This document shows positions 26,555-33,518 of a stretch of DNA of 64,000 nucleotides, in pieces. The translations under genes were made by a program, and so were the position numbers. The first letter of the stretch is position 1; every line of letters starts with the position of its first letter. Below the pieces are notes generated by a model. It saw only the letters and a program-made list of their open reading frames with translations, was not told the DNA's origin and made no database searches. The stretch comes from an uncultured Nitrososphaeraceae archaeon (lineage in GTDB: Archaea > Thermoproteota > Nitrososphaeria > Nitrososphaerales > Nitrososphaeraceae): NCBI GenBank assembly GCA_963825865.1, contig CAWGVG010000005.1, positions 64,001 through 128,000 on the forward strand. The letters run 5' to 3'.

Positions 26555-27592
26555 TTATTTGGATGTCACAATCACTTTCATTGAATCCTTTCCTTCATCT
26601 GCGCATCTTATTGCATCATCAGTATTTTTAATGTCAAAACGGTGGGTTATTAAACACTTTACGTCTAAGCGCTTCTCTACAATCAATTTTAATGCCTGGT
26701 TTGTTTCAATCTCTGATGCGGCATAAGTCGGAATGATAGATTGTTCATTTGCGTATAACTTGTTCACATTGACCGGAATTTCCGATCCTTTGGATGGGAC
26801 ACCAAAGAGCATTATTTTACCTGCTTTTCTTGTTACGTCAAAAGATTGTTCAAGTGCTTTTGCGCTTCCTGTGGCAACAATTGAGATATCAACACCTCTG
26901 TAGCCAGTAACATTTTGTATTTTTTTGATGAGGTTACTTTCAGTCATAGAATTAAAAGCTTGGACATTATCATATTTTTTTGCAAAATCCACTCTAAAAT
27001 CGTTGATGTCGAGTACAATGATTTTTCCTGCACCCAATGCTTTTGCAAGAGTCACATGCATCATTCCTGCAGGACCTGCTCCGAATACTGCAATATCATC
27101 GCCTTTTTGAAAATTGCACTTGTTTATTGCTCTTATACAACATGCTAGTGGCTCAATAAGTGATGCTTCATCAAACGTTACGCTGTCTGGTAATTTTATA
27201 AGCCCTCCTCGAGAAAGGTTCCATTCAGGTACTAAGAATTCTTCGGATAATCCACATGGATCAATTTTACTTTTTTGATACATGGCACACATCGTATAAT
27301 CTCCATGCCAGCAATAATAGCATGAATAGCAGCTAACGTGATGATGAATGAAAACGCGATCTCCCGGTGCAAAATCTTTCACGTATTTTCCTGTATTTAT
27401 AATCTCACCTGAAGGCTCATGTCCAAGTCCAGAGGATGACATCCCATATTGACCATGGACTTTCTCCAAATCAGAACCACACAGTCCGCATGCGCGCATT
27501 TTTATAAGAACATCTCCATCACCTAGTTTTGGAGTTGCTACATCGTCAATTGAAACTGCATTTTTACCTTTGACAAAGACAGCTTTCATCAA
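26555..27592 (-). CDS. Zinc-dependent (MDR) alcohol/sugar dehydrogenase
   Basis: CGLCGSD, GHE, CYSCYYC..C, GAGPAG. Confidence 0.9.
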   Translation of the reverse strand: MMKAVFVKGKNAVSIDDVATPKLGDGDVLIKMRACGLCGSDLEKVHGQYGMSSSGLGHEPSGEIINTGKYVKDFAPGDRVFIHHHVSCYSCYYCWHGDYTMCAMYQKSKIDPCGLSEEFLVPEWNLSRGGLIKLPDSVTFDEASLIEPLACCIRAINKCNFQKGDDIAVFGAGPAGMMHVTLAKALGAGKIIVLDINDFRVDFAKKYDNVQAFNSMTESNLIKKIQNVTGYRGVDISIVATGSAKALEQSFDVTRKAGKIMLFGVPSKGSEIPVNVNKLYANEQSIIPTYAASEIETNQALKLIVEKRLDVKCLITHRFDIKNTDDAIRCADEGKDSMKVIVTSK

Positions 27593-28244
27593 TCGGAGAT
27601 TAGAACTTCAACTATAAAAAATGTCTTAACACATCACAACATATTAACGAAATTTGAAAAATTTGCGTTCCATCATATAAAACAATCCGTTGTTTTTGAA
27701 ACAAGGGATTGTTATTTCAAAAGTAGTAAAATATATTTTAATATTGCAGCTTCGTATTCTTAAATAAGGTATTGTCATAAAAACCGTTCCAATAACTGAT
27801 ATAAGATTAGATTATATGGTTACTAAAAGTGTGATAAAAATAAATTCCTCTATGTGACGTTATAGCGGCATAATAATGACTAAATCGCATAGTGGTATTG
27901 AGTCGTAATATGCAATCCAATAAAGATTCACCCTTTCCGTACCTTGGCATGGTTAGCTCTTTCTAATACTGTTAGGATTGATCATTGATCGTAGAAAGTA
28001 TCTACTGCAAACACAGATACATTCCCTTCTCCTTGGATAGGTATAGTAATATAGTTCTTTGAATCAATTTTTAATCTACATTATAAAGAAATTTACTAAT
28101 CCTGATAGCGATTATTGCAGTTGTGGTAATTGTTATTTAACTCTGGTATGGGTAGAACTTATGGTTCGATATATTATCTATATATCGCACAAAATCTTTA
28201 TAAATTATATCATTGCAATCTATGAATAATGCCTTGGGCTAAAA

Positions 28245-28319
28245 GTGAAGGGTCTTGTATTACCTCGCAGCCTGCAGGGTACAGCGGTTACAGTTGTACT
28301 TCTGGTGCTGCTGCTTTAA
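28245..28319 (+). CDS. Putative Val/Leu-rich leader peptide of the ilv-leu operon
   Basis: GTG-start 24-codon ORF (M)KGLVLPRSLQGTAVTVVLLVLLL ending 52 nt before ilvB. Confidence 0.6.
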   Translation: MKGLVLPRSLQGTAVTVVLLVLLL

Positions 28320-28341
28320 ATCATACTCTGCACTTTATTTT
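28273..28341 (+). promoter_or_regulatory. Attenuator-like hairpin plus U-tract
   Basis: TGCAGGGTA (28273) pairs with TACTCTGCA (28324); CAGCGGT (28282) with GCTGCTG (28307); followed by CTTTATTTT. Confidence 0.5.
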
Positions 28342-28371
28342 GACAGGGCATTTTGGTGGAGATATATATAA

Positions 28372-30063
28372 ATGGTGGAGATGGCCGGCGCAAAAGGCTT
28401 GATTTGTGCTCTTGAAAAGGAGAACGTGGACATAGTGTTTGGACTTCCAGGTGGAGCAAACCTTCCTATCTATGATGCTCTAGTGGATGCTGGTCACCTA
28501 CGTCATATTCTTGTACGGCATGAACAGTCTGCTGCTCATATGGCTGACGGCTATGCAAGAATAAAAAGGAGAGCTGGAGTGTGTTTTGCTACTTCTGGTC
28601 CAGGTGCCACTAATCTTATCACAGGTATCGCTACAGCATATGCTGATTCTTCTCCTTTGATCGCTGTAACTGGTCAAGTGCCATTAGCTATGATCGGAAA
28701 AGATGCTTTCCAAGAAACTGATATCATTGGTGTTGCTAATCCTTGTACAAAGTATGCGTTCCAACCAACAACAGCAAGCGAAATCCCAGAATCAGTAAAA
28801 AAGGCTTTCTATATAGCAGAAAGTGGAAGACCTGGTCCTGTGCTCATAGATATTCCCAAAGATGTGCAGCAGGCTACTGCAGATATGAAATTTCCTGAAC
28901 TTATCAAGGTAAGGGGTTACAGTCCTATCGTTGATGCTGATCTATCTCAAGTGGGAAAGGCTGTTGAAATTTTGCTTAAAGCGGAAAGGCCAATCATAAT
29001 GGCTGGTGGGGGTGTAATTCTTTCAGGTGCTTTTTCCGAATTACAGGCACTTGCAGAATTGTTAATGACTCCTGTAGTAACTACCTTTAAAGGAAAAGGC
29101 GCGTTTCCTGAAAATCATCCTCTTGCTATGGGACCCATTGGAATGCATGGACATGCGGAGGCCAATAAGATCATCATTGAAGCAGATTGCATACTCGCAG
29201 TGGGTGCAAGGTTTTCTGATAGATCGATAGGAAGATTTGACGAGTTTGGAAAAGGGATGAATATTATCCATATGGATGTCGATCCTGCAGAAATTGGTAA
29301 GAACAAGTCTGTCGATGTCGCAGTCATAGGCGATGTAAAATCATCGTTGAGAACACTTGTTAAGATGCTTCCAAGAAAAATGGTGAAAAAAGATACAGAA
29401 AACCCTTGGCTAAAGAGAAAAAAGGAGCTAATCGGATACTATGCTGAAACGCTTAAAGACTATCCAAGGGACCTTACAGCCAAAAAAACTCTAAAAAAAC
29501 TTAGAGAAATTTTACCTGCCAACGCAATTGCAACTACTGAAGTGGGTCAATGTCAGATGTGGACATCATTGCATTTTGATGTAATTTCACCTGGTACCTT
29601 TTTTAGCTCGACAGGTCTTGGAACAATGGGATTTGGATTTCCTGCTTCAATAGGTGCAAAGGCGGCTAGGCCAGAAGTGCCAGTGGTAGACATTGCAGGC
29701 GATGGTTCTTTCAACATGACAGAAAATTCTCTAGCCGTATCTGTTCTAGATAACCTCCCGGTAATCGTGTTTTTAATGAATAATTATATGCTTGGAATGG
29801 TAGCTCAATGGCAGAGAACATTTTATAACAGAAGATACATGGGAGTACATCAGCACAACCTCCCTGATTATGCAAAGATAGCAGAGGCATATGGTGCACA
29901 GGGAATCAAAGTGCAATCATCGCAAGAGTTAGAAAAGGCAATTAAATCTGCCTTGAAGACGGAAGTTGCCACTGTCATCGATATTCCAATTGATCCTGAA
30001 GAAGATGTTTATCCGTTTGTAGCACCTGGTACAGGTCTTAAAGATATGATTACAGGATCATGA
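28372..30063 (+). CDS. ilvB: Acetolactate synthase large subunit
   Basis: FGLPGG, RHEQ, TSGPGATN, ThDP-binding GDGSF..NN. Confidence 0.97.
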   Translation: MVEMAGAKGLICALEKENVDIVFGLPGGANLPIYDALVDAGHLRHILVRHEQSAAHMADGYARIKRRAGVCFATSGPGATNLITGIATAYADSSPLIAVTGQVPLAMIGKDAFQETDIIGVANPCTKYAFQPTTASEIPESVKKAFYIAESGRPGPVLIDIPKDVQQATADMKFPELIKVRGYSPIVDADLSQVGKAVEILLKAERPIIMAGGGVILSGAFSELQALAELLMTPVVTTFKGKGAFPENHPLAMGPIGMHGHAEANKIIIEADCILAVGARFSDRSIGRFDEFGKGMNIIHMDVDPAEIGKNKSVDVAVIGDVKSSLRTLVKMLPRKMVKKDTENPWLKRKKELIGYYAETLKDYPRDLTAKKTLKKLREILPANAIATTEVGQCQMWTSLHFDVISPGTFFSSTGLGTMGFGFPASIGAKAARPEVPVVDIAGDGSFNMTENSLAVSVLDNLPVIVFLMNNYMLGMVAQWQRTFYNRRYMGVHQHNLPDYAKIAEAYGAQGIKVQSSQELEKAIKSALKTEVATVIDIPIDPEEDVYPFVAPGTGLKDMITGS

Positions 30064-30070
30064 CACTAAT

Positions 30071-32113
30071 ATGTCAACAACAACAACAACAACTACGACA
30101 AACGAACAAAGTAAACATTGGTATATACTATCTGCTCTGCTAGAAAACAAACCAGGTGTTTTATTTAGAGTGACAAACCTTTTCAGAGCACGAAACTTTA
30201 ACATTGAAAGTATAACGGTAGGTTCCACTGAACAGGTCGATCTTTCAAGGATGACGATTACCACTAAGAGTGATGAAAAAACGCTAGATCAGCTTGTAAA
30301 ACAGCTTAGGAAGTTGATTGATGTAGTAGAGGTAAAAGTGCTTGATACAGATAAAACAGTTTTCCGCGAACTGGCCTTAATCAAAATGAAGGCAGAAGAT
30401 CCCACTACAAGAATGGAAATAACTAATTTCGCATCTATATTTAGAGCAAACATACTTGACATAGGAAAAGCAACCATTCTTGTAGAACTTACAGGAACCC
30501 CGGACAAAATAGATGCGTTTAAAAATCTCGTCGGACATTATGGGATAATACAGTTGGCAAGAACTGGTGTTTCAGCACTCCCAAGAGGTGAAACCTTAGT
30601 GTTAGACATGATGGATAAAGTTAGAATTTTTGATACTACGTTAAGAGATGGTGAACAGACGCCAGGGGTATCAGTTACTCCAGAACAGAAATTCAAGATT
30701 GCTATTAAACTAGATGAAATAGGTGTAGACGCTATTGAGGTTGGTTTTCCAATTGTTTCTCAAGGTGAAATGGAAGCAATAAAAGCAATAACCAAACAAG
30801 GATTAAATGCGGAAGTTTGTGGTCTGGCACGTACAGTTCAAGCGGATATTGATGCTGCAATAAATTGTAATTTAAAGTATGTACACACTTTCATTGCTAC
30901 TTCTGACATCCATATGCAATACAAGCTTAAAATGAGTAGGGAGCAGGTGTTAGAAAAAGCAATATGGGCAGTAGATTATGCCAAGAAAAATGGCATGCAG
31001 GTAGAATTTTCGGCAGAAGACGCAACGAGATCAGATAAGGTATTTGTAAACACGGTTTTCAAGGCAGTTGCTGATGCCGGTGCTGATAGATTAGATATTC
31101 CTGATACTGTCGGTTATGCCACTCCTCAATATATTGCAGAACTCGTTAACGATGTGAAGATAGCAACGAAACTTCCCGTCAGCATACATTGTCATGATGA
31201 TTTTGGGCTAGCTGTGGCTAACGCAATTTCTGGAATAAATGCCGGTGCCTCCTGTGCGCATGTAACAATAAATGGTTTAGGAGAAAGAGCGGGAAATGCA
31301 TCACTTGAGGAATTTGTTATGGCGCTTCAATGTCTATATAATAAGAAACACAATATTAAAACTGAGTTACTTTATGAAACCTCCAAACTTATCTCCAACA
31401 TAATGGGAATAATTGTTCAACCAAACAAAGCAATAATTGGTGAAAATGCTTTTGGTCATGAATCTGGCATCCACACACACGGTATTATAAATAATCCGCT
31501 TACTTACGAACCAATTAGTCCGGAACTAGTTGGAAGAAAAAGATGGATGCAAGCTGGAAAACATGCTGGGGCCCATGGTATCAAAGCAATGTTAGAAGAA
31601 TTTGGGATCAAACCAACAGATGAACAGCTACATAATATCGTCGAAAAACAAAAAAACCTTGCAGACAAAGGAAAATCAATAACTACCGCAGAACTTTTAT
31701 CAATAGCTGGAGATATTATGCATAATAACAGGTTTGAAGAGAAATTCAAACTCTATGATTTTCATATTGTAACTGGAATGAATACCATACCAACAGCTGT
31801 TGTTAGATTGAATACAGATGGTAAAGATTTCATTGCATCTGAAATTGGCGTTGGACCAGTAGATGCTGCATTGAAAGCTATACAAAAGGTCGCAGGAGAA
31901 ATGGAGAACATCAAGATCCGTGAATACAGATTAGATTCTATTACAGGAGGTTCCGATGCGTTAGCCGAAGTTTCAATAAAGGTAGAAGACAAAAAAGGAA
32001 ATATTGTATCTGCAAGAAAGGCAGGAGAGGACGTGGTAGTTGCCTCAGTTCAGGCAATGATGGATGCTATTAATAAAATAATGCTTAAGAAAATGCTCTA
32101 TTCCAAGAACTAA
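30071..32113 (+). CDS. leuA: Acetolactate synthase small subunit (IlvN) in frame with 2-isopropylmalate synthase (LeuA/CimA family)
   Basis: ENKPGVLFRV..NIESI..ARTG (IlvN), then IFDTTLRDGEQ, HCHDDFGLA, GERAGNA, GVGPVDA. Confidence 0.9.
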   Translation: MSTTTTTTTTNEQSKHWYILSALLENKPGVLFRVTNLFRARNFNIESITVGSTEQVDLSRMTITTKSDEKTLDQLVKQLRKLIDVVEVKVLDTDKTVFRELALIKMKAEDPTTRMEITNFASIFRANILDIGKATILVELTGTPDKIDAFKNLVGHYGIIQLARTGVSALPRGETLVLDMMDKVRIFDTTLRDGEQTPGVSVTPEQKFKIAIKLDEIGVDAIEVGFPIVSQGEMEAIKAITKQGLNAEVCGLARTVQADIDAAINCNLKYVHTFIATSDIHMQYKLKMSREQVLEKAIWAVDYAKKNGMQVEFSAEDATRSDKVFVNTVFKAVADAGADRLDIPDTVGYATPQYIAELVNDVKIATKLPVSIHCHDDFGLAVANAISGINAGASCAHVTINGLGERAGNASLEEFVMALQCLYNKKHNIKTELLYETSKLISNIMGIIVQPNKAIIGENAFGHESGIHTHGIINNPLTYEPISPELVGRKRWMQAGKHAGAHGIKAMLEEFGIKPTDEQLHNIVEKQKNLADKGKSITTAELLSIAGDIMHNNRFEEKFKLYDFHIVTGMNTIPTAVVRLNTDGKDFIASEIGVGPVDAALKAIQKVAGEMENIKIREYRLDSITGGSDALAEVSIKVEDKKGNIVSARKAGEDVVVASVQAMMDAINKIMLKKMLYSKN

Positions 32114-32146
32114 AGTTTATACGCTATTTAAAATGTTAATGTTTGA

Positions 32147-33173
32147 TTGACGCGATACACTATTGCATTAATTACTGGCGATGGGATTGGTTCTGAATTA
32201 ACAAGTTCAGCAAAAACAATTCTGGAAACAATAAGTGATAATTCTACAACTAAATTTACAATAAATGAAGTCTGACGCAGGTGATAATGCACTTGTTAAA
32301 TTTGGTAAAGCACTTCCAGATTTTACTCTGATATAATTAAAAAGTCTGAAGCCTGTTTGAAGGGTCCTGTTGGTGAAAGCGCAGCGGATGTAATCATTGT
32401 TCTTGAGACGCATATTTGATCTTTATGTAAATATCAGACCAGCAAAATCCTATCCAAACGTTAAAAACCTCTCTGAGAATGTAGACCTTATAACAATAAG
32501 GGAAAATACCGAAGATATATACTTAGGTTGGGAATTCAATATTGATGAGAATACAGTCATAGCATTGAGGCTGACGTCAGAAAGGGCATCAAGGAGGGTT
32601 GCAGAATATGCATTTAAAACAGCTGTCATACGGAATACAAAGAGGAAGGTTGTAGCAGTTCATAAAGCCAATGTTTTACGGAAAGGCGACGGATTATTCT
32701 CGCAGACCTGTAGATCAGTTTCCCACAAATATCCCAATATACAATATAGCGAATTGTATGTTGATGCATGTGCTATGAATCTAATCCGTAATCCTGAAGA
32801 TTTCGATATTATTCTGACAACGAACCTTTTTGGCGACATTCTGTCTGATGAGGCAGCACAAGTGGTTGGTGGGTTAGGCATGGGTCCATCAGCCAATGTT
32901 GGAAATGATTTTGGATTATTTGAACCAGTTCATGGAGCTGCCTTTGATATCGCTGGAAAGAATATTGCAAATCCCTCATCGATTTTATTATCTACAAAAA
33001 TGATGCTCGAATGGTTGGCAGACAAGTATAATGATAATGATGCTTTCAAAGAGGGTCAGCGTATTGAAAATGTCATAACCAGTTTACTAAAACAAAACAA
33101 AAAAACAAAAGACATAGGCGGAAAACTTTCAACTACCGAGTTCACAAATTTGTTTGCTATTTCAATGTACTAG
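32147..33173 (+). CDS. leuB: 3-isopropylmalate dehydrogenase (frameshifts in the 5' part)
   Basis: ITGDGIG at N-terminus; IRENTED, NLFGDILSD, FEPVHGAAFDIAGK. Confidence 0.9.
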
Positions 33174-33371
33174 AAGTTATATTTTTATCTATCTTAATCG
33201 CAATTACTTTGATTCATATCTACAAACCCTATGATTTTTTTTCTGTGATGCAAAATAAATGTCAAAATAAAACTATTAATTCGTATTGTTTATGAATGTA
33301 ACTTGTATATTTTGACTCAGCTGGGTATTACTACTTATAGCCTAAATAGAAGCTAAAAGATATATGTAAAC

Positions 33372-33518
33372 ATGGTTAAGTTTGATGGAATAAAAGGTCA
33401 GGAACTGTTAGATGTAGAAGAAAACAAGGATGAAATTACATTAATCTTCAAAGACAATAGATTCCTTTTCGTCAAGGTCGATAATGGGAAATTAGTCTGT
33501 GATTCTGTCCCGGAATAA
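33372..33518 (+). CDS. Small hypothetical protein, 48 aa
   Basis: MVKFDGIKGQELLDVEENKDEITLIFKDNRFLFVKVDNGKLVCDSVPE. Confidence 0.65.
   Translation: MVKFDGIKGQELLDVEENKDEITLIFKDNRFLFVKVDNGKLVCDSVPE

Follow-up and report, generated by a model that had tools for sequence, protein, structure and literature searches.

A putative leaderless leader peptide rich in Val and Leu codons upstream of the ilvB operon in Nitrososphaerales

Known leader-peptide systems and the ilvB locus

Attenuation by leader peptides is a textbook mode of bacterial gene control, which needs coupled transcription and translation, and its enterobacterial representatives include the leader peptides ivbL (upstream of ilvBN), ilvL (ilvGMEDA) and leuL (leu). 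An attenuator of ilvBNC in Corynebacterium glutamicum was reportedly described by Morbach et al. in 2000. According to a later source, it comprises a leader peptide before ilvB, translated without a ribosome-binding site, and several hairpins (PMC11857589). Mycobacterial leaderless short ORFs with polycysteine tracts use ribosome stalling as the sensor, while the tract pairs with the next gene's ribosome-binding site (10.1101/834739). For archaea, our search of full-text literature, with subscription journals mostly outside its coverage, returned no description of leader-peptide attenuation.

The locus analyzed here belongs to an uncultured Nitrososphaeraceae archaeon and lies in the window, i.e., the whole analyzed stretch of 64,000 nucleotides; its features are collected in Table 1. 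The operon placed under the leader, ilvB-ilvN-leuA-leuB, occupies positions 28372-33173 of the forward strand (Pfam). In the window, ilvN and leuA appear as one 680-aa ORF and leuB is devoid of its N-terminus, both being assembly artefacts. In addition to the leader indel discussed below, the window departs from independent contigs by an indel of a single base at five sites, all of them two-base homopolymers, and correction of these gives back ilvN (175 aa), leuA (504 aa) and leuB (341 aa).

Table 1. Coordinates of the features in and around the ilvB leader (positions in the window)
Feature	Position	Strand	Remarks
TATA box TTTATAAA	28197-28204	+	leader/ilvB promoter; distance to the ilvB ATG (28372) 175 nt
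Leader ORF, most likely form: 29 codons and a stop, MPWAKSEGSCITSQ followed by LQGTAVTVVLLVLLL	28229-28319	+	one frame, as in L032/L033; split in the window
GTG-start ORF of the preliminary description	28245-28319	+	covers the leader ORF's 3' two-thirds, in the frame made by the extra C
CC versus single C in the nearest relatives	28271-28272	+	probable assembly indel splitting the leader frame
Long hairpin, outer helix 28273-81/28324-32	28273-28332	+	-24.7 kcal/mol alone; encloses the Val/Leu run and the stop; clade-specific
Helix inside the ORF, CAGCGGU (28282-88) with GCUGCUG (28307-13)	28282-28313	+	type H1; Leu/Val codons form the 3' arm
Putative regulatory run V-T-V-V-L-L-V-L-L-L	28287-28316	+	abuts the stop TAA 28317-28319
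Weak local hairpin CUCUG/CAGGG	28326-28348	+	-4.2 kcal/mol; version of the family GCUCUGC-loop-GCAGGGC just 3' of the stop
U-rich tracts CTTTATTTTG (28333-41) and CATTTTGG (28350-55)	28333-28355	+	candidate termination signal
CAGGGCAU	28344-28351	+	complementary to the mRNA 5' end AUGCCUUG (28229-28236); mutually exclusive with the post-stop hairpin
Shine-Dalgarno-like GGTGGAG (28356-62) and ilvB ATG (28372)	28356-28374	+	second in-frame ATG at 28381
ilvB	28372-30063	+	first gene of the operon, Pfam

The leader ORF, its promoter and its transcripts

The preliminary description of this DNA had reported a TATA-like site at ~28197, about 175 nt before ilvB, and an unannotated GTG-start ORF at 28245-28319, and both were located as reported. 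The latter ORF reads (M)KGLVLPRSLQGTAVTVVLLVLLL; Val and Leu make up 9 of its last 10 and 13 of its 23 non-start residues, and four Leu codons are CTG, as had been claimed; the CTG codons stand at 28272, 28302, 28308 and 28311. Within the run at its end, Leu is encoded successively by CTT, CTG, CTG, CTG and CTT. The nearest relatives, L032 and L033 (97% ilvB identity), possess an intact single frame of 29 codons, MPWAKSERSCITSQLQGTAVTVVLLVLLL, read from the ATG. The alignment of the window with L032, 189 columns long, contains 7 substitutions and a single indel column, and an extra C is present at 28271/72 (CAGCCTGCAG in the window versus CAGCTGCAG in L032/L033). This extra C is most likely an assembly indel, judging from the relatives and from the five indels of like kind by which ilvN, leuA and leuB are disrupted in the window. 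The earlier proposal of a leaderless start at the ATG 28229 was borne out as to the start itself, which is conserved, but not as to the place of the frame break, which had been sought in the A run 28241-44; a frameshift there is ruled out, since the ATG frame of the relatives passes through this run unbroken.

The TATA box sits 32 nt upstream of this ATG. Across 99 leader loci, the spacing between the TATA-like heptamer, counted from its first T, and the ATG of the leader is 27-43 nt in all but one (mode 32). The block CTTTATAAATTATA is near-invariant in alignment A1 (21 sequences), and GGTGA before ilvB is conserved in the alignments as well. General archaeal promoter geometry puts the predicted transcription start at ~28226-28229, by which the small ORF would be leaderless. 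A genome-wide histogram of TATA-to-ATG distances gave few hits only.

An ilvB transcription start downstream of 28320, which would have spoken against a leader in the mRNA, is not supported, because two metatranscriptome contigs join position 28287 through the Val/Leu run, the hairpin and the U-tracts with ilvB. The RNA contigs of two metatranscriptome runs share their start at 28287, i.e., 12 nt upstream of the first Leu codon of the Val/Leu run. If the novel leader build suggested below is true, this 5' end could mark the rear boundary of a ribosome that pauses on the first CUG codon. The contigs of four runs leave 27933-28286 uncovered, a gap that is technical, since run X1 contains 91% of the sampled words of 27900-28900.

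Among small ORFs ending 15-120 nt upstream of 2297 crude genes in the genome to which the window belongs, only 2 of 3960 carry nine Leu or Val in their last ten residues, which is more than chance would give for the leader, and no such ORF was found upstream of ilvC, ilvD or two aconitase-family genes. When leaders matched to further products (His, Trp, Thr, Cys and others) were sought in this genome with crude gene calls, low-complexity repeats alone came up. A poly-Cys ORF upstream of an arginase-family gene is a TGT repeat.

Conservation and competing RNA pairings across Nitrososphaerales

The relatives confirmed the leader observation and made it stronger. An ORF with an ATG start, a TATA-positioned beginning and at least 7 Ile, Leu or Val among its last 10 residues was found in 68 of 170 distinct ilvB upstream regions of Nitrososphaerales (the loci are distinct, yet related genomes are not independent samples), compared to 0/170 on the reverse complement and 0/170 in each of five shuffles. 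By sequence, the 85 distinct leader peptides form 23 clusters. The ORF is present at each of the 13 loci that bear the label Nitrososphaera, and occurs also under the labels Nitrosotalea, Nitrosopumilus, Nitrosarchaeum and Nitrosocosmicus; 48 of the 170 loci have no qualifying ORF, and one clade lacking it uses its own proximal promoter. Wherever present, the leader ORF is the first cistron of ilvB. Its length differences are whole codons, and in 14 sequences of the MKLGG type the minor-allele counts at codon positions 1, 2 and 3 are 34, 3 and 29, respectively, position 2 being the most conserved. A Val/Leu-run ORF varying at the codon level, the outcome that the preliminary description had set in advance as a test of its proposal, is thus what the relatives display. 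Profile searches with 16 representative peptides retrieved no Pfam family and one chance NCBIfam match (E 0.14) to an unrelated protein, and 9 of 10 representative peptides are missing from a collection of 15 billion proteins.

The last Ile, Leu or Val is the final or penultimate residue in 85 of 85 peptides, a set that was chosen by its tail. The tails contain L (40%), V (20%), I (8%), A (5%), F (2%) and M (2%). CTG accounts for 43% of Leu codons in the tails (n = 379) versus 9% in ilvB of the same loci, and its share is likewise 9% in the long ORFs of the window's genome. This bias may be caused by the CAGCG:CUGCUG helix instead of codon rarity.

The equivalent of that helix (type H1), formed by CAGCGAAC and GUUCUGCUG, is the RNAalifold consensus of 26 Nitrososphaera-type leaders, and in 16 of 91 leaders the upstream part of the ORF is complementary to the Val/Leu run with z < -2.33. 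The preliminary description had combined H1 with the outer helix into one long hairpin, which indeed appears in the minimum-energy fold of the window, followed by CTTTATTTT, but is confined to its clade. In alignment A1, 32% of the cells of the long hairpin are paired versus 22-62% in slid controls, which rules it out as a family feature. The full leader of L032, the nearest relative, lacks it in its minimum-energy fold; a fold resembling it appears for the L032 tail with its flank. In leaders in general, hairpins enclosing the tail (pairs between the ORF tail and its flank) are not enriched, with a median of 7 versus 10.3 in shuffled sequences.

The stop codon is accompanied by a hairpin of its own, which starts from -12 to +13 nt relative to it and has a median energy of -9.2 kcal/mol versus -5.6 kcal/mol in shuffled sequences; values of -9 kcal/mol or below were obtained for 49 of 91 leaders versus 39 of 182 shuffled ones. 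The cells of the family helix GCUCUGC/GCAGGGC are paired in 87.7% of cases versus 36-53% in slid controls. In the minimum-energy folds of both the window and L032, the mRNA 5' end pairs with 28344-28351, and in alignment A1 this 5'-end helix has 93.9% of its cells paired versus 31-56% when slid. With z < -2.33 as the threshold, the 5' end is complementary to the post-stop region in 23 of 96 leaders, and the middle of the ORF to the same region in 0 of 56. The partner in the mutually exclusive pairings is the mRNA 5' end, not a segment downstream of the Val/Leu run. Covarying stems, which had also been anticipated, did not emerge, the leader helices displaying almost no two-sided covariation. 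Two hairpins were observed in the leader loci of this analysis. A search of 27400-28700 against Rfam at E up to 10 returned one chance match only (E 6.7), located elsewhere in the stretch.

Archaeal termination is held to require oligo-U instead of hairpins, and to our knowledge hairpin termination is not established for archaeal RNA polymerase. Among 89 spacers after the leader, T runs of at least 5 occur in 7 versus A runs of at least 5 in 10, by which an enrichment of T-tracts downstream of leaders is ruled out. Bacterial-type terminators (hairpin-plus-T sites) are not enriched in the window's genome either, and the terminator scan did not call the site of the window. The idea that ribosome stalling controls read-through into ilvB gains from the conserved product-matched ORF, but because neither T-tracts nor bacterial-type terminators are enriched, control of read-through by termination remains a candidate mechanism.

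Interpretation and comparison with known systems

Considering the comparative sequence data, sensing by a ribosome on the leader ORF appears well supported. The reading that we prefer and regard as reasonably probable is that of a leaderless 29-codon leader, on which the ribosome senses charged Leu, Val and Ile tRNAs and by its position selects among competing RNA pairings. The ilvB-ilvN-leuA-leuB mRNA would begin at the leader, without a 5' untranslated region, and a ribosome presumably translating it would read the supply of the charged tRNAs at the last ten codons, nearly all of which are Val or Leu. Its position at the end of the ORF would then determine which pairing forms: that of the Val/Leu run with upstream codons, the hairpin at or just 3' of the stop, or that of the 5' end with the 3' arm of this hairpin. 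In the favoured version, a ribosome held on the run would block the stop-adjacent hairpin or, in the clade of the window, the long run-enclosing one, and RNA polymerase would cross the U-rich tract into ilvB; once the ribosome finishes and departs, the hairpin would form and transcription or use of the messenger would be reduced. Stalling near the beginning of the run, however, would not keep the post-stop hairpin from forming, and this gives the simplest model the wrong sign.

The Val/Leu run may also be sensed by the ribosome with an output different from transcription termination, namely altered ilvB translation or messenger life, brought about, e.g., by shielding of the 5' end or, in families with short spacers, by occlusion of the ilvB ribosome-binding site, similarly to the mycobacterial polycysteine ORFs. 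We consider this unlikely, albeit far from negligible. In its favour, T-tracts are not enriched, the stop of the MKLGG family is only 26-37 nt from the ilvB ATG with the hairpin made of the last codons and the stop, the hairpin region is complementary to the mRNA 5' end together with its AUG, the contig starts at 28287 give a weak hint, and the mycobacterial precedent acts on translation (10.1101/834739). On the other side, the run pairs with the ilvB ribosome-binding region no better than expected by chance (median z +0.35; 0/93 below -2), such pairing being ruled out as a candidate, and the Nitrososphaeraceae spacer of 52-72 nt exceeds the length that steric occlusion could span. A third reading, in which a protein or a small molecule recognizes a structured RNA and the open frame is a by-product, would agree with the several conserved helices and with the conservation of codons 1-9 at the nucleotide level in the family of the window, which fits RNA pairing. 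Still, we assign it a small probability, as the frame, the TATA-positioned ATG and the I/L/V tail are kept across 23 unrelated peptide clusters, codon position 2 is the most conserved, ORF lengths vary by whole codons, and no relevant Rfam match was obtained at E up to 10.

Slighter still is the chance that the product works as a small peptide of hydrophobic or membrane character, expressed together with ilvB. Its C-terminus is hydrophobic and some families keep the peptide sequence well (MKLGGSxSISxILLLVDLML), but the longest hydrophobic run (median 5, maximum 9 residues) is too short for a membrane span, the tail is of L, V and I with only 2% each of F and M and 5% of A, and the ORF is always the first cistron of ilvB and belongs to no Pfam or NCBIfam family. 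As for an ORF arisen by chance in an AT-rich spacer, AT-rich genomes do produce many short ORFs rich in Ile and Leu; nevertheless, 68/170 against 0/170 in controls and 2/3960 in the window's own genome make this origin very unlikely, close to negligible.

If the novel leader build suggested in the next paragraph is true, Archaea would gain their first described case of ribosome-mediated attenuation, and one of two things would follow: an archaeal RNA polymerase whose termination is sensitive to hairpins, or a new route of signalling from ribosome to messenger. The conserved product-matched leader ORF before ilvB provides a concrete testable case in an order of abundant soil and marine nitrifiers. 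It bears on the functional coupling of archaeal ribosome and RNA polymerase, on the effects of RNA hairpins on archaeal termination or messenger fate, and on the control of amino-acid synthesis in slow-growing autotrophs; besides, annotation overlooks real small genes by the dozen.

The leader resembles the mycobacterial polycysteine ORFs in being a first-cistron leaderless ORF with a run of product codons (the start being predicted, with the TATA-ATG distance of 27-43 nt in 98/99 loci), and differs in that pairing of the run with the ribosome-binding site was not found here (0/93 below z -2). With the C. glutamicum ilvBNC system it shares a putative leader peptide before ilvB, presumed translation without a ribosome-binding site and several hairpins; the latter system has a bacterial intrinsic terminator and another hairpin layout, homology being compared by family scans alone. 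Like enterobacterial ivbL, ilvL and leuL, it is a short ORF before the genes of the same pathway, rich in codons for the end products and followed by a hairpin with a U-rich tract, with competing RNA pairings. Unlike them, it is archaeal, presumably leaderless and without sequence relation to them as judged by Pfam and NCBIfam profiles; the run abuts the stop codon, therefore leaving no space for a downstream region 2, and pairs with upstream codons, while the mRNA 5' end is in competition for the 3' arm of the hairpin. We tentatively suggest, at a little short of even chances, that ammonia-oxidising archaea sense branched-chain amino acids by a leaderless leader peptide of a build unseen in bacteria, in which the run is the 3' arm of a hairpin reaching the stop, a second hairpin extends from the stop, and the mRNA 5' end, including the start codon, competes for the 3' arm of this second hairpin.

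Leader ORF and probable promoter of the ilvB operon

The small Leu/Val-tailed ORF upstream of ilvB-ilvN-leuA-leuB proved to be as the preliminary description had it, the TATA-like TTTATAAA, the GTG-start frame and the tracts downstream of it all matching the window. Pfam searches assigned three TPP-enzyme domains to ilvB, recovered ilvN and leuA as a single 680-aa ORF (30071-32113) and leuB without about 90 N-terminal residues, and placed a zinc alcohol dehydrogenase gene on the opposite strand upstream of the leader. No Rfam family matched the leader region at E-values up to 10.

Features of the ilvB leader region in the window
Feature	Position	Strand	Remark
TATA-like TTTATAAA	28197-28204	+	seen in the window sequence
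GTG-start ORF	28245-28319	+	C-terminus VTVVLLVLLL; seen in the window sequence
CTTTATTTTG and CATTTTGG	3' of leader stop, 5' of GGTGGAG	+	seen in the window sequence
GGTGGAG	between CATTTTGG and ilvB ATG	+	seen in the window sequence
ilvB start ATG	28372	+	seen in the window sequence
Counterpart of the CAGCGAAC/GUUCUGCUG helix	28282-28288 with 28307-28313	+	run paired with upstream codons

Contigs from two DNA and two RNA sequencing runs were compared with window positions 27600-33400. Between contigs and window, single-nucleotide indels were seen at 30594 (in three runs), 32268, 32327, 32403 and 33213, a two-base homopolymer being present at each of these five sites; a 3-nt CAA difference was seen at 30074 as well. 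The window indels fuse ilvN to leuA, which are separate genes in relatives, and disrupt leuB in its 5' part, where at least three frame changes occur; with the five indels applied, ilvN, leuA and leuB measure 175, 504 and 341 aa, respectively. Frameshifts should be kept in mind in all gene calls of this genome. Two copies of ilvC with identical scores were also found on different contigs (G000:C25:29492-29920 and G000:C29:185813-186241), with frame breaks upstream of both, which suggests duplicated or strain-variant contigs in the 4.98-Mb, 82%-complete assembly.

The two closest relatives, L032 and L033, which share 97% of the first 200 IlvB residues with the window, have CAGCTGCAG in the leader vs CAGCCTGCAG in the window, i.e., one C fewer; apart from this base, 7 substitutions separate the window from L032 across 189 aligned columns. 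With this C removed, a single 29-codon frame starts at ATG 28229; in L032 it reads MPWAKSERSCITSQLQGTAVTVVLLVLLL. The preliminary description had correctly guessed a leaderless start at this ATG, but had placed the break in the frame at the A run 28241-28244, where it does not lie. As 27933-28286 is covered by no contig, we infer, rather than observe, that the extra C is a difference of the same kind as the five assembly indels; this hole is technical, since X1, one of the four runs, contains 91% of the words sampled from 27900-28900.

In 98 of 99 leader loci, TATA and ATG are 27-43 nt apart, most often 32. Judging from this spacing and the general rule for the distance between TATA and transcription start in archaeal promoters, transcription is predicted to start at the ATG, and the leader ORF is apparently leaderless. 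A second TATA-like run, ATATATATAAA, adjoins the ilvB ATG at 28363-28371; it is unlikely to act as an ilvB promoter element, because a start about 25 nt downstream would fall inside the gene.

Conservation, specificity and coding signature

Upstream regions of ilvB were collected from 30 genomes of the same order, 80 metagenome contigs and 80 named genome contigs, giving 190 loci, 170 of them distinct with at least 230 nt upstream. ORFs were required to start with ATG, to contain at least 10 codons, to have a TATA-like heptamer 20-45 nt upstream and to stop 20-130 nt before ilvB. The conserved Val/Leu run expected in relatives by the preliminary description was present: at least 7 I/L/V among the last 10 residues were found in 68/170 loci and at least 6 in 88/170, as against 0/170 in the reverse-complement control and, in five shuffles, 0/170 and 0-1, respectively; 48/170 loci had no qualifying ORF of any kind. 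Locus counts overstate independence, as the genomes are related, and the 23 clusters formed by 85 distinct peptides at 50% identity are the fairer unit. By record label, the leader occurs in 13/13 Nitrososphaera loci, both Nitrosotalea loci, the Nitrosopumilus and Nitrosarchaeum loci, 5/6 Nitrosopumilaceae and 4/5 Nitrosocosmicus, and in only 4/21 loci labelled merely 'Nitrososphaeraceae' (at least 6 I/L/V). One clade of Nitrososphaeraceae that lacks this ORF (L014, L015, L065, L066, L068, L070, L073, L099, L142, L143, L147) has an almost invariable TTGACAACGAGTATATATACGAAG...CAATGAATATTC block directly 5' of ilvB, within the last ~60 nt. The block resembles a TATA promoter close to the gene, preceded by a conserved site, and would represent a different mode of ilvB control.

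Within the window's genome, crude gene calling (3485 ORFs of at least 120 aa) yielded 3960 small ORFs ending 15-120 nt upstream of 2297 genes. Only two of the 3960 had 9 Leu/Val among the last 10 residues, namely the ilvB leader and one ORF before an unrelated gene. No I/L/V-tailed ORF was found before ilvC (two copies, both frameshifted), ilvD or two aconitase-family genes, nor was any convincing leader for other amino acids found in this genome. A small minus-strand ORF with six consecutive Cys codons (L192, G000:C27, ~1360-1385), located 120 nt upstream of an arginase-family gene, was rejected as a leader, being a TGT repeat that probably arose by chance.

Variation within the ORF appears to follow codons. 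Minor-allele counts per codon position were 34/3/29 in MKLGG-type leaders (n=14), position 2 being the least variable, and 13/5/16 in Nitrososphaera-type ones (n=8), where 7/7 replacements at I/L/V tail positions remain I/L/V. ORF lengths within a family differ in whole codons (60, 66, 69, 72, 75 nt). The last I/L/V is the final or second-last residue in 85/85 peptides; since the peptides were selected on their tails, only this figure is informative, and the I/L/V share of 68% in the last ten residues vs 17% elsewhere is not. The tails contain 40% L, 20% V, 8% I and 2% each of F and M. CTG accounts for 43% of 379 tail Leu codons vs 9% both in ilvB of the same loci and genome-wide, in many clusters, though not all. 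The CTG-biased tails of 91 loci (e.g., window 28302-28313) coincide with a CAGCG:CUGCUG helix inside the ORF; the bias may stem from codon rarity, from this helix or from both, which sequence alone cannot separate. None of the representative peptides matched Pfam or NCBIfam, and nine of ten were absent from a 15-billion-protein collection, the tenth being a 'hypothetical protein'.

Taken together, these comparisons show a conserved mini-gene, apparently coding and leaderless, whose codons match the products of the ilvB operon and which is found specifically before that operon.

RNA pairings and transcripts

The run adjoins the stop and sits within predicted competing helices. Hairpins starting from 12 nt before to 13 nt after the first stop base had a median energy of -9.2 vs -5.6 kcal/mol in shuffled sequences, and reached -9 kcal/mol or lower in 49/91 regions vs 39/182 shuffled. 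Their arms differ by family (GCUCUGC/GCAGGGC, CAAACCCUG/CAGGCGUUUG, AUCCUGCA/UGCAGGGU and GCUGUAA/UUACAGC, the latter formed from the last codons and the stop). In the window's family, 87.7% of cells of this helix are paired vs 36-53% in slid controls, with no two-sided changes; the window's own stop hairpin is weak (-4.2 kcal/mol). For 26 Nitrososphaera-type leaders, the consensus structure given by RNAalifold is a pairing of upstream codons with the run, CAGCGAAC/GUUCUGCUG; complementarity of the upstream ORF to the run exceeds that of shuffles at z<-2.33 in 16/91 leaders and z<-1.65 in 31/91. The first 27 nt, including the start codon, are complementary to the post-stop region (z<-2.33 in 23/96 leaders, mostly Nitrososphaeraceae); in the 21-sequence alignment of the window's family, two such helices have 93.9% and 94.2% of cells paired vs 22-57% slid, and AUGCCUUG:CAGGGCAU pairs in the minimum-energy folds of the window and L032. 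This pairing and the stop hairpin are mutually exclusive.

The long hairpin noticed in the preliminary description (28273-28332, -24.7 kcal/mol) is real in the window, but lacks conservation across the family (32% paired cells vs 22-62% slid) and is missing from the fold of the full L032 leader. Among leader loci, pairs between ORF tail and flank showed no overall enrichment, the run did not pair with the ilvB ribosome-binding region, and T-tracts in leader-ilvB spacers were not commoner than A-tracts; in 20 kb of the window, 10 hairpin-plus-T sites were found vs 10.9 expected, i.e., no enrichment.

Two metatranscriptome runs, each from a different study, gave RNA contigs that extend unbroken over 28287-29546 and 28287-28490, spanning the Leu/Val run, the hairpin region and the ilvB start; soil therefore contains read-through RNA that includes 85 nt or more of the leader. 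Position 28287, which is covered by no DNA contig, is the exact first base of both, without a loose end. It lies 12 nt upstream of the run's first Leu codon and may reflect either a 5' end of the RNA, made by processing or by an exonuclease stopped at a ribosome, or a break in contig building.

Proposed mechanism and related systems

A ribosome would read the run, its dwell time would mirror charged Leu/Val/Ile tRNA, and its footprint would select among the helices. For the window's clade, a ribosome at any point of 28282-28316 would block the -24.7 kcal/mol hairpin ending directly before CUUUAUUUUG, and its release would permit it, so that the simplest hairpin-blocking model works, giving the correct sign. 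In other families, the post-stop hairpin would be covered only if the ribosome stood on one of the final two or three codons. To our knowledge, hairpin-driven termination is not established for archaeal polymerases; for this reason, and as the U-tract is not general, the output may be termination, messenger stability or ilvB translation, possibly differing between families.

Ribosome sensing with hairpin occlusion or termination as its output is the reading we favour, with moderate confidence, whereas the same sensing with another output seems possible and rather less probable. A non-translated RNA element, a working peptide and chance together take up the small remainder; a membrane peptide, in particular, is argued against by the shortness of the longest hydrophobic run (median 5, maximum 9 residues).

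In the full-text literature searched, mostly outside subscription journals, no paper on leader-peptide attenuation in Archaea was found, nor any match to 'leuA-Halobacteria', the predicted motif named in the preliminary description as an archaeal precedent. The closest known systems include the enterobacterial ivbL, ilvL and leuL attenuators. They also include the ilvBNC leader of Corynebacterium glutamicum, likewise leaderless (PMC11857589), and, in mycobacteria, leaderless polycysteine ORFs whose effect is on translation (10.1101/834739).
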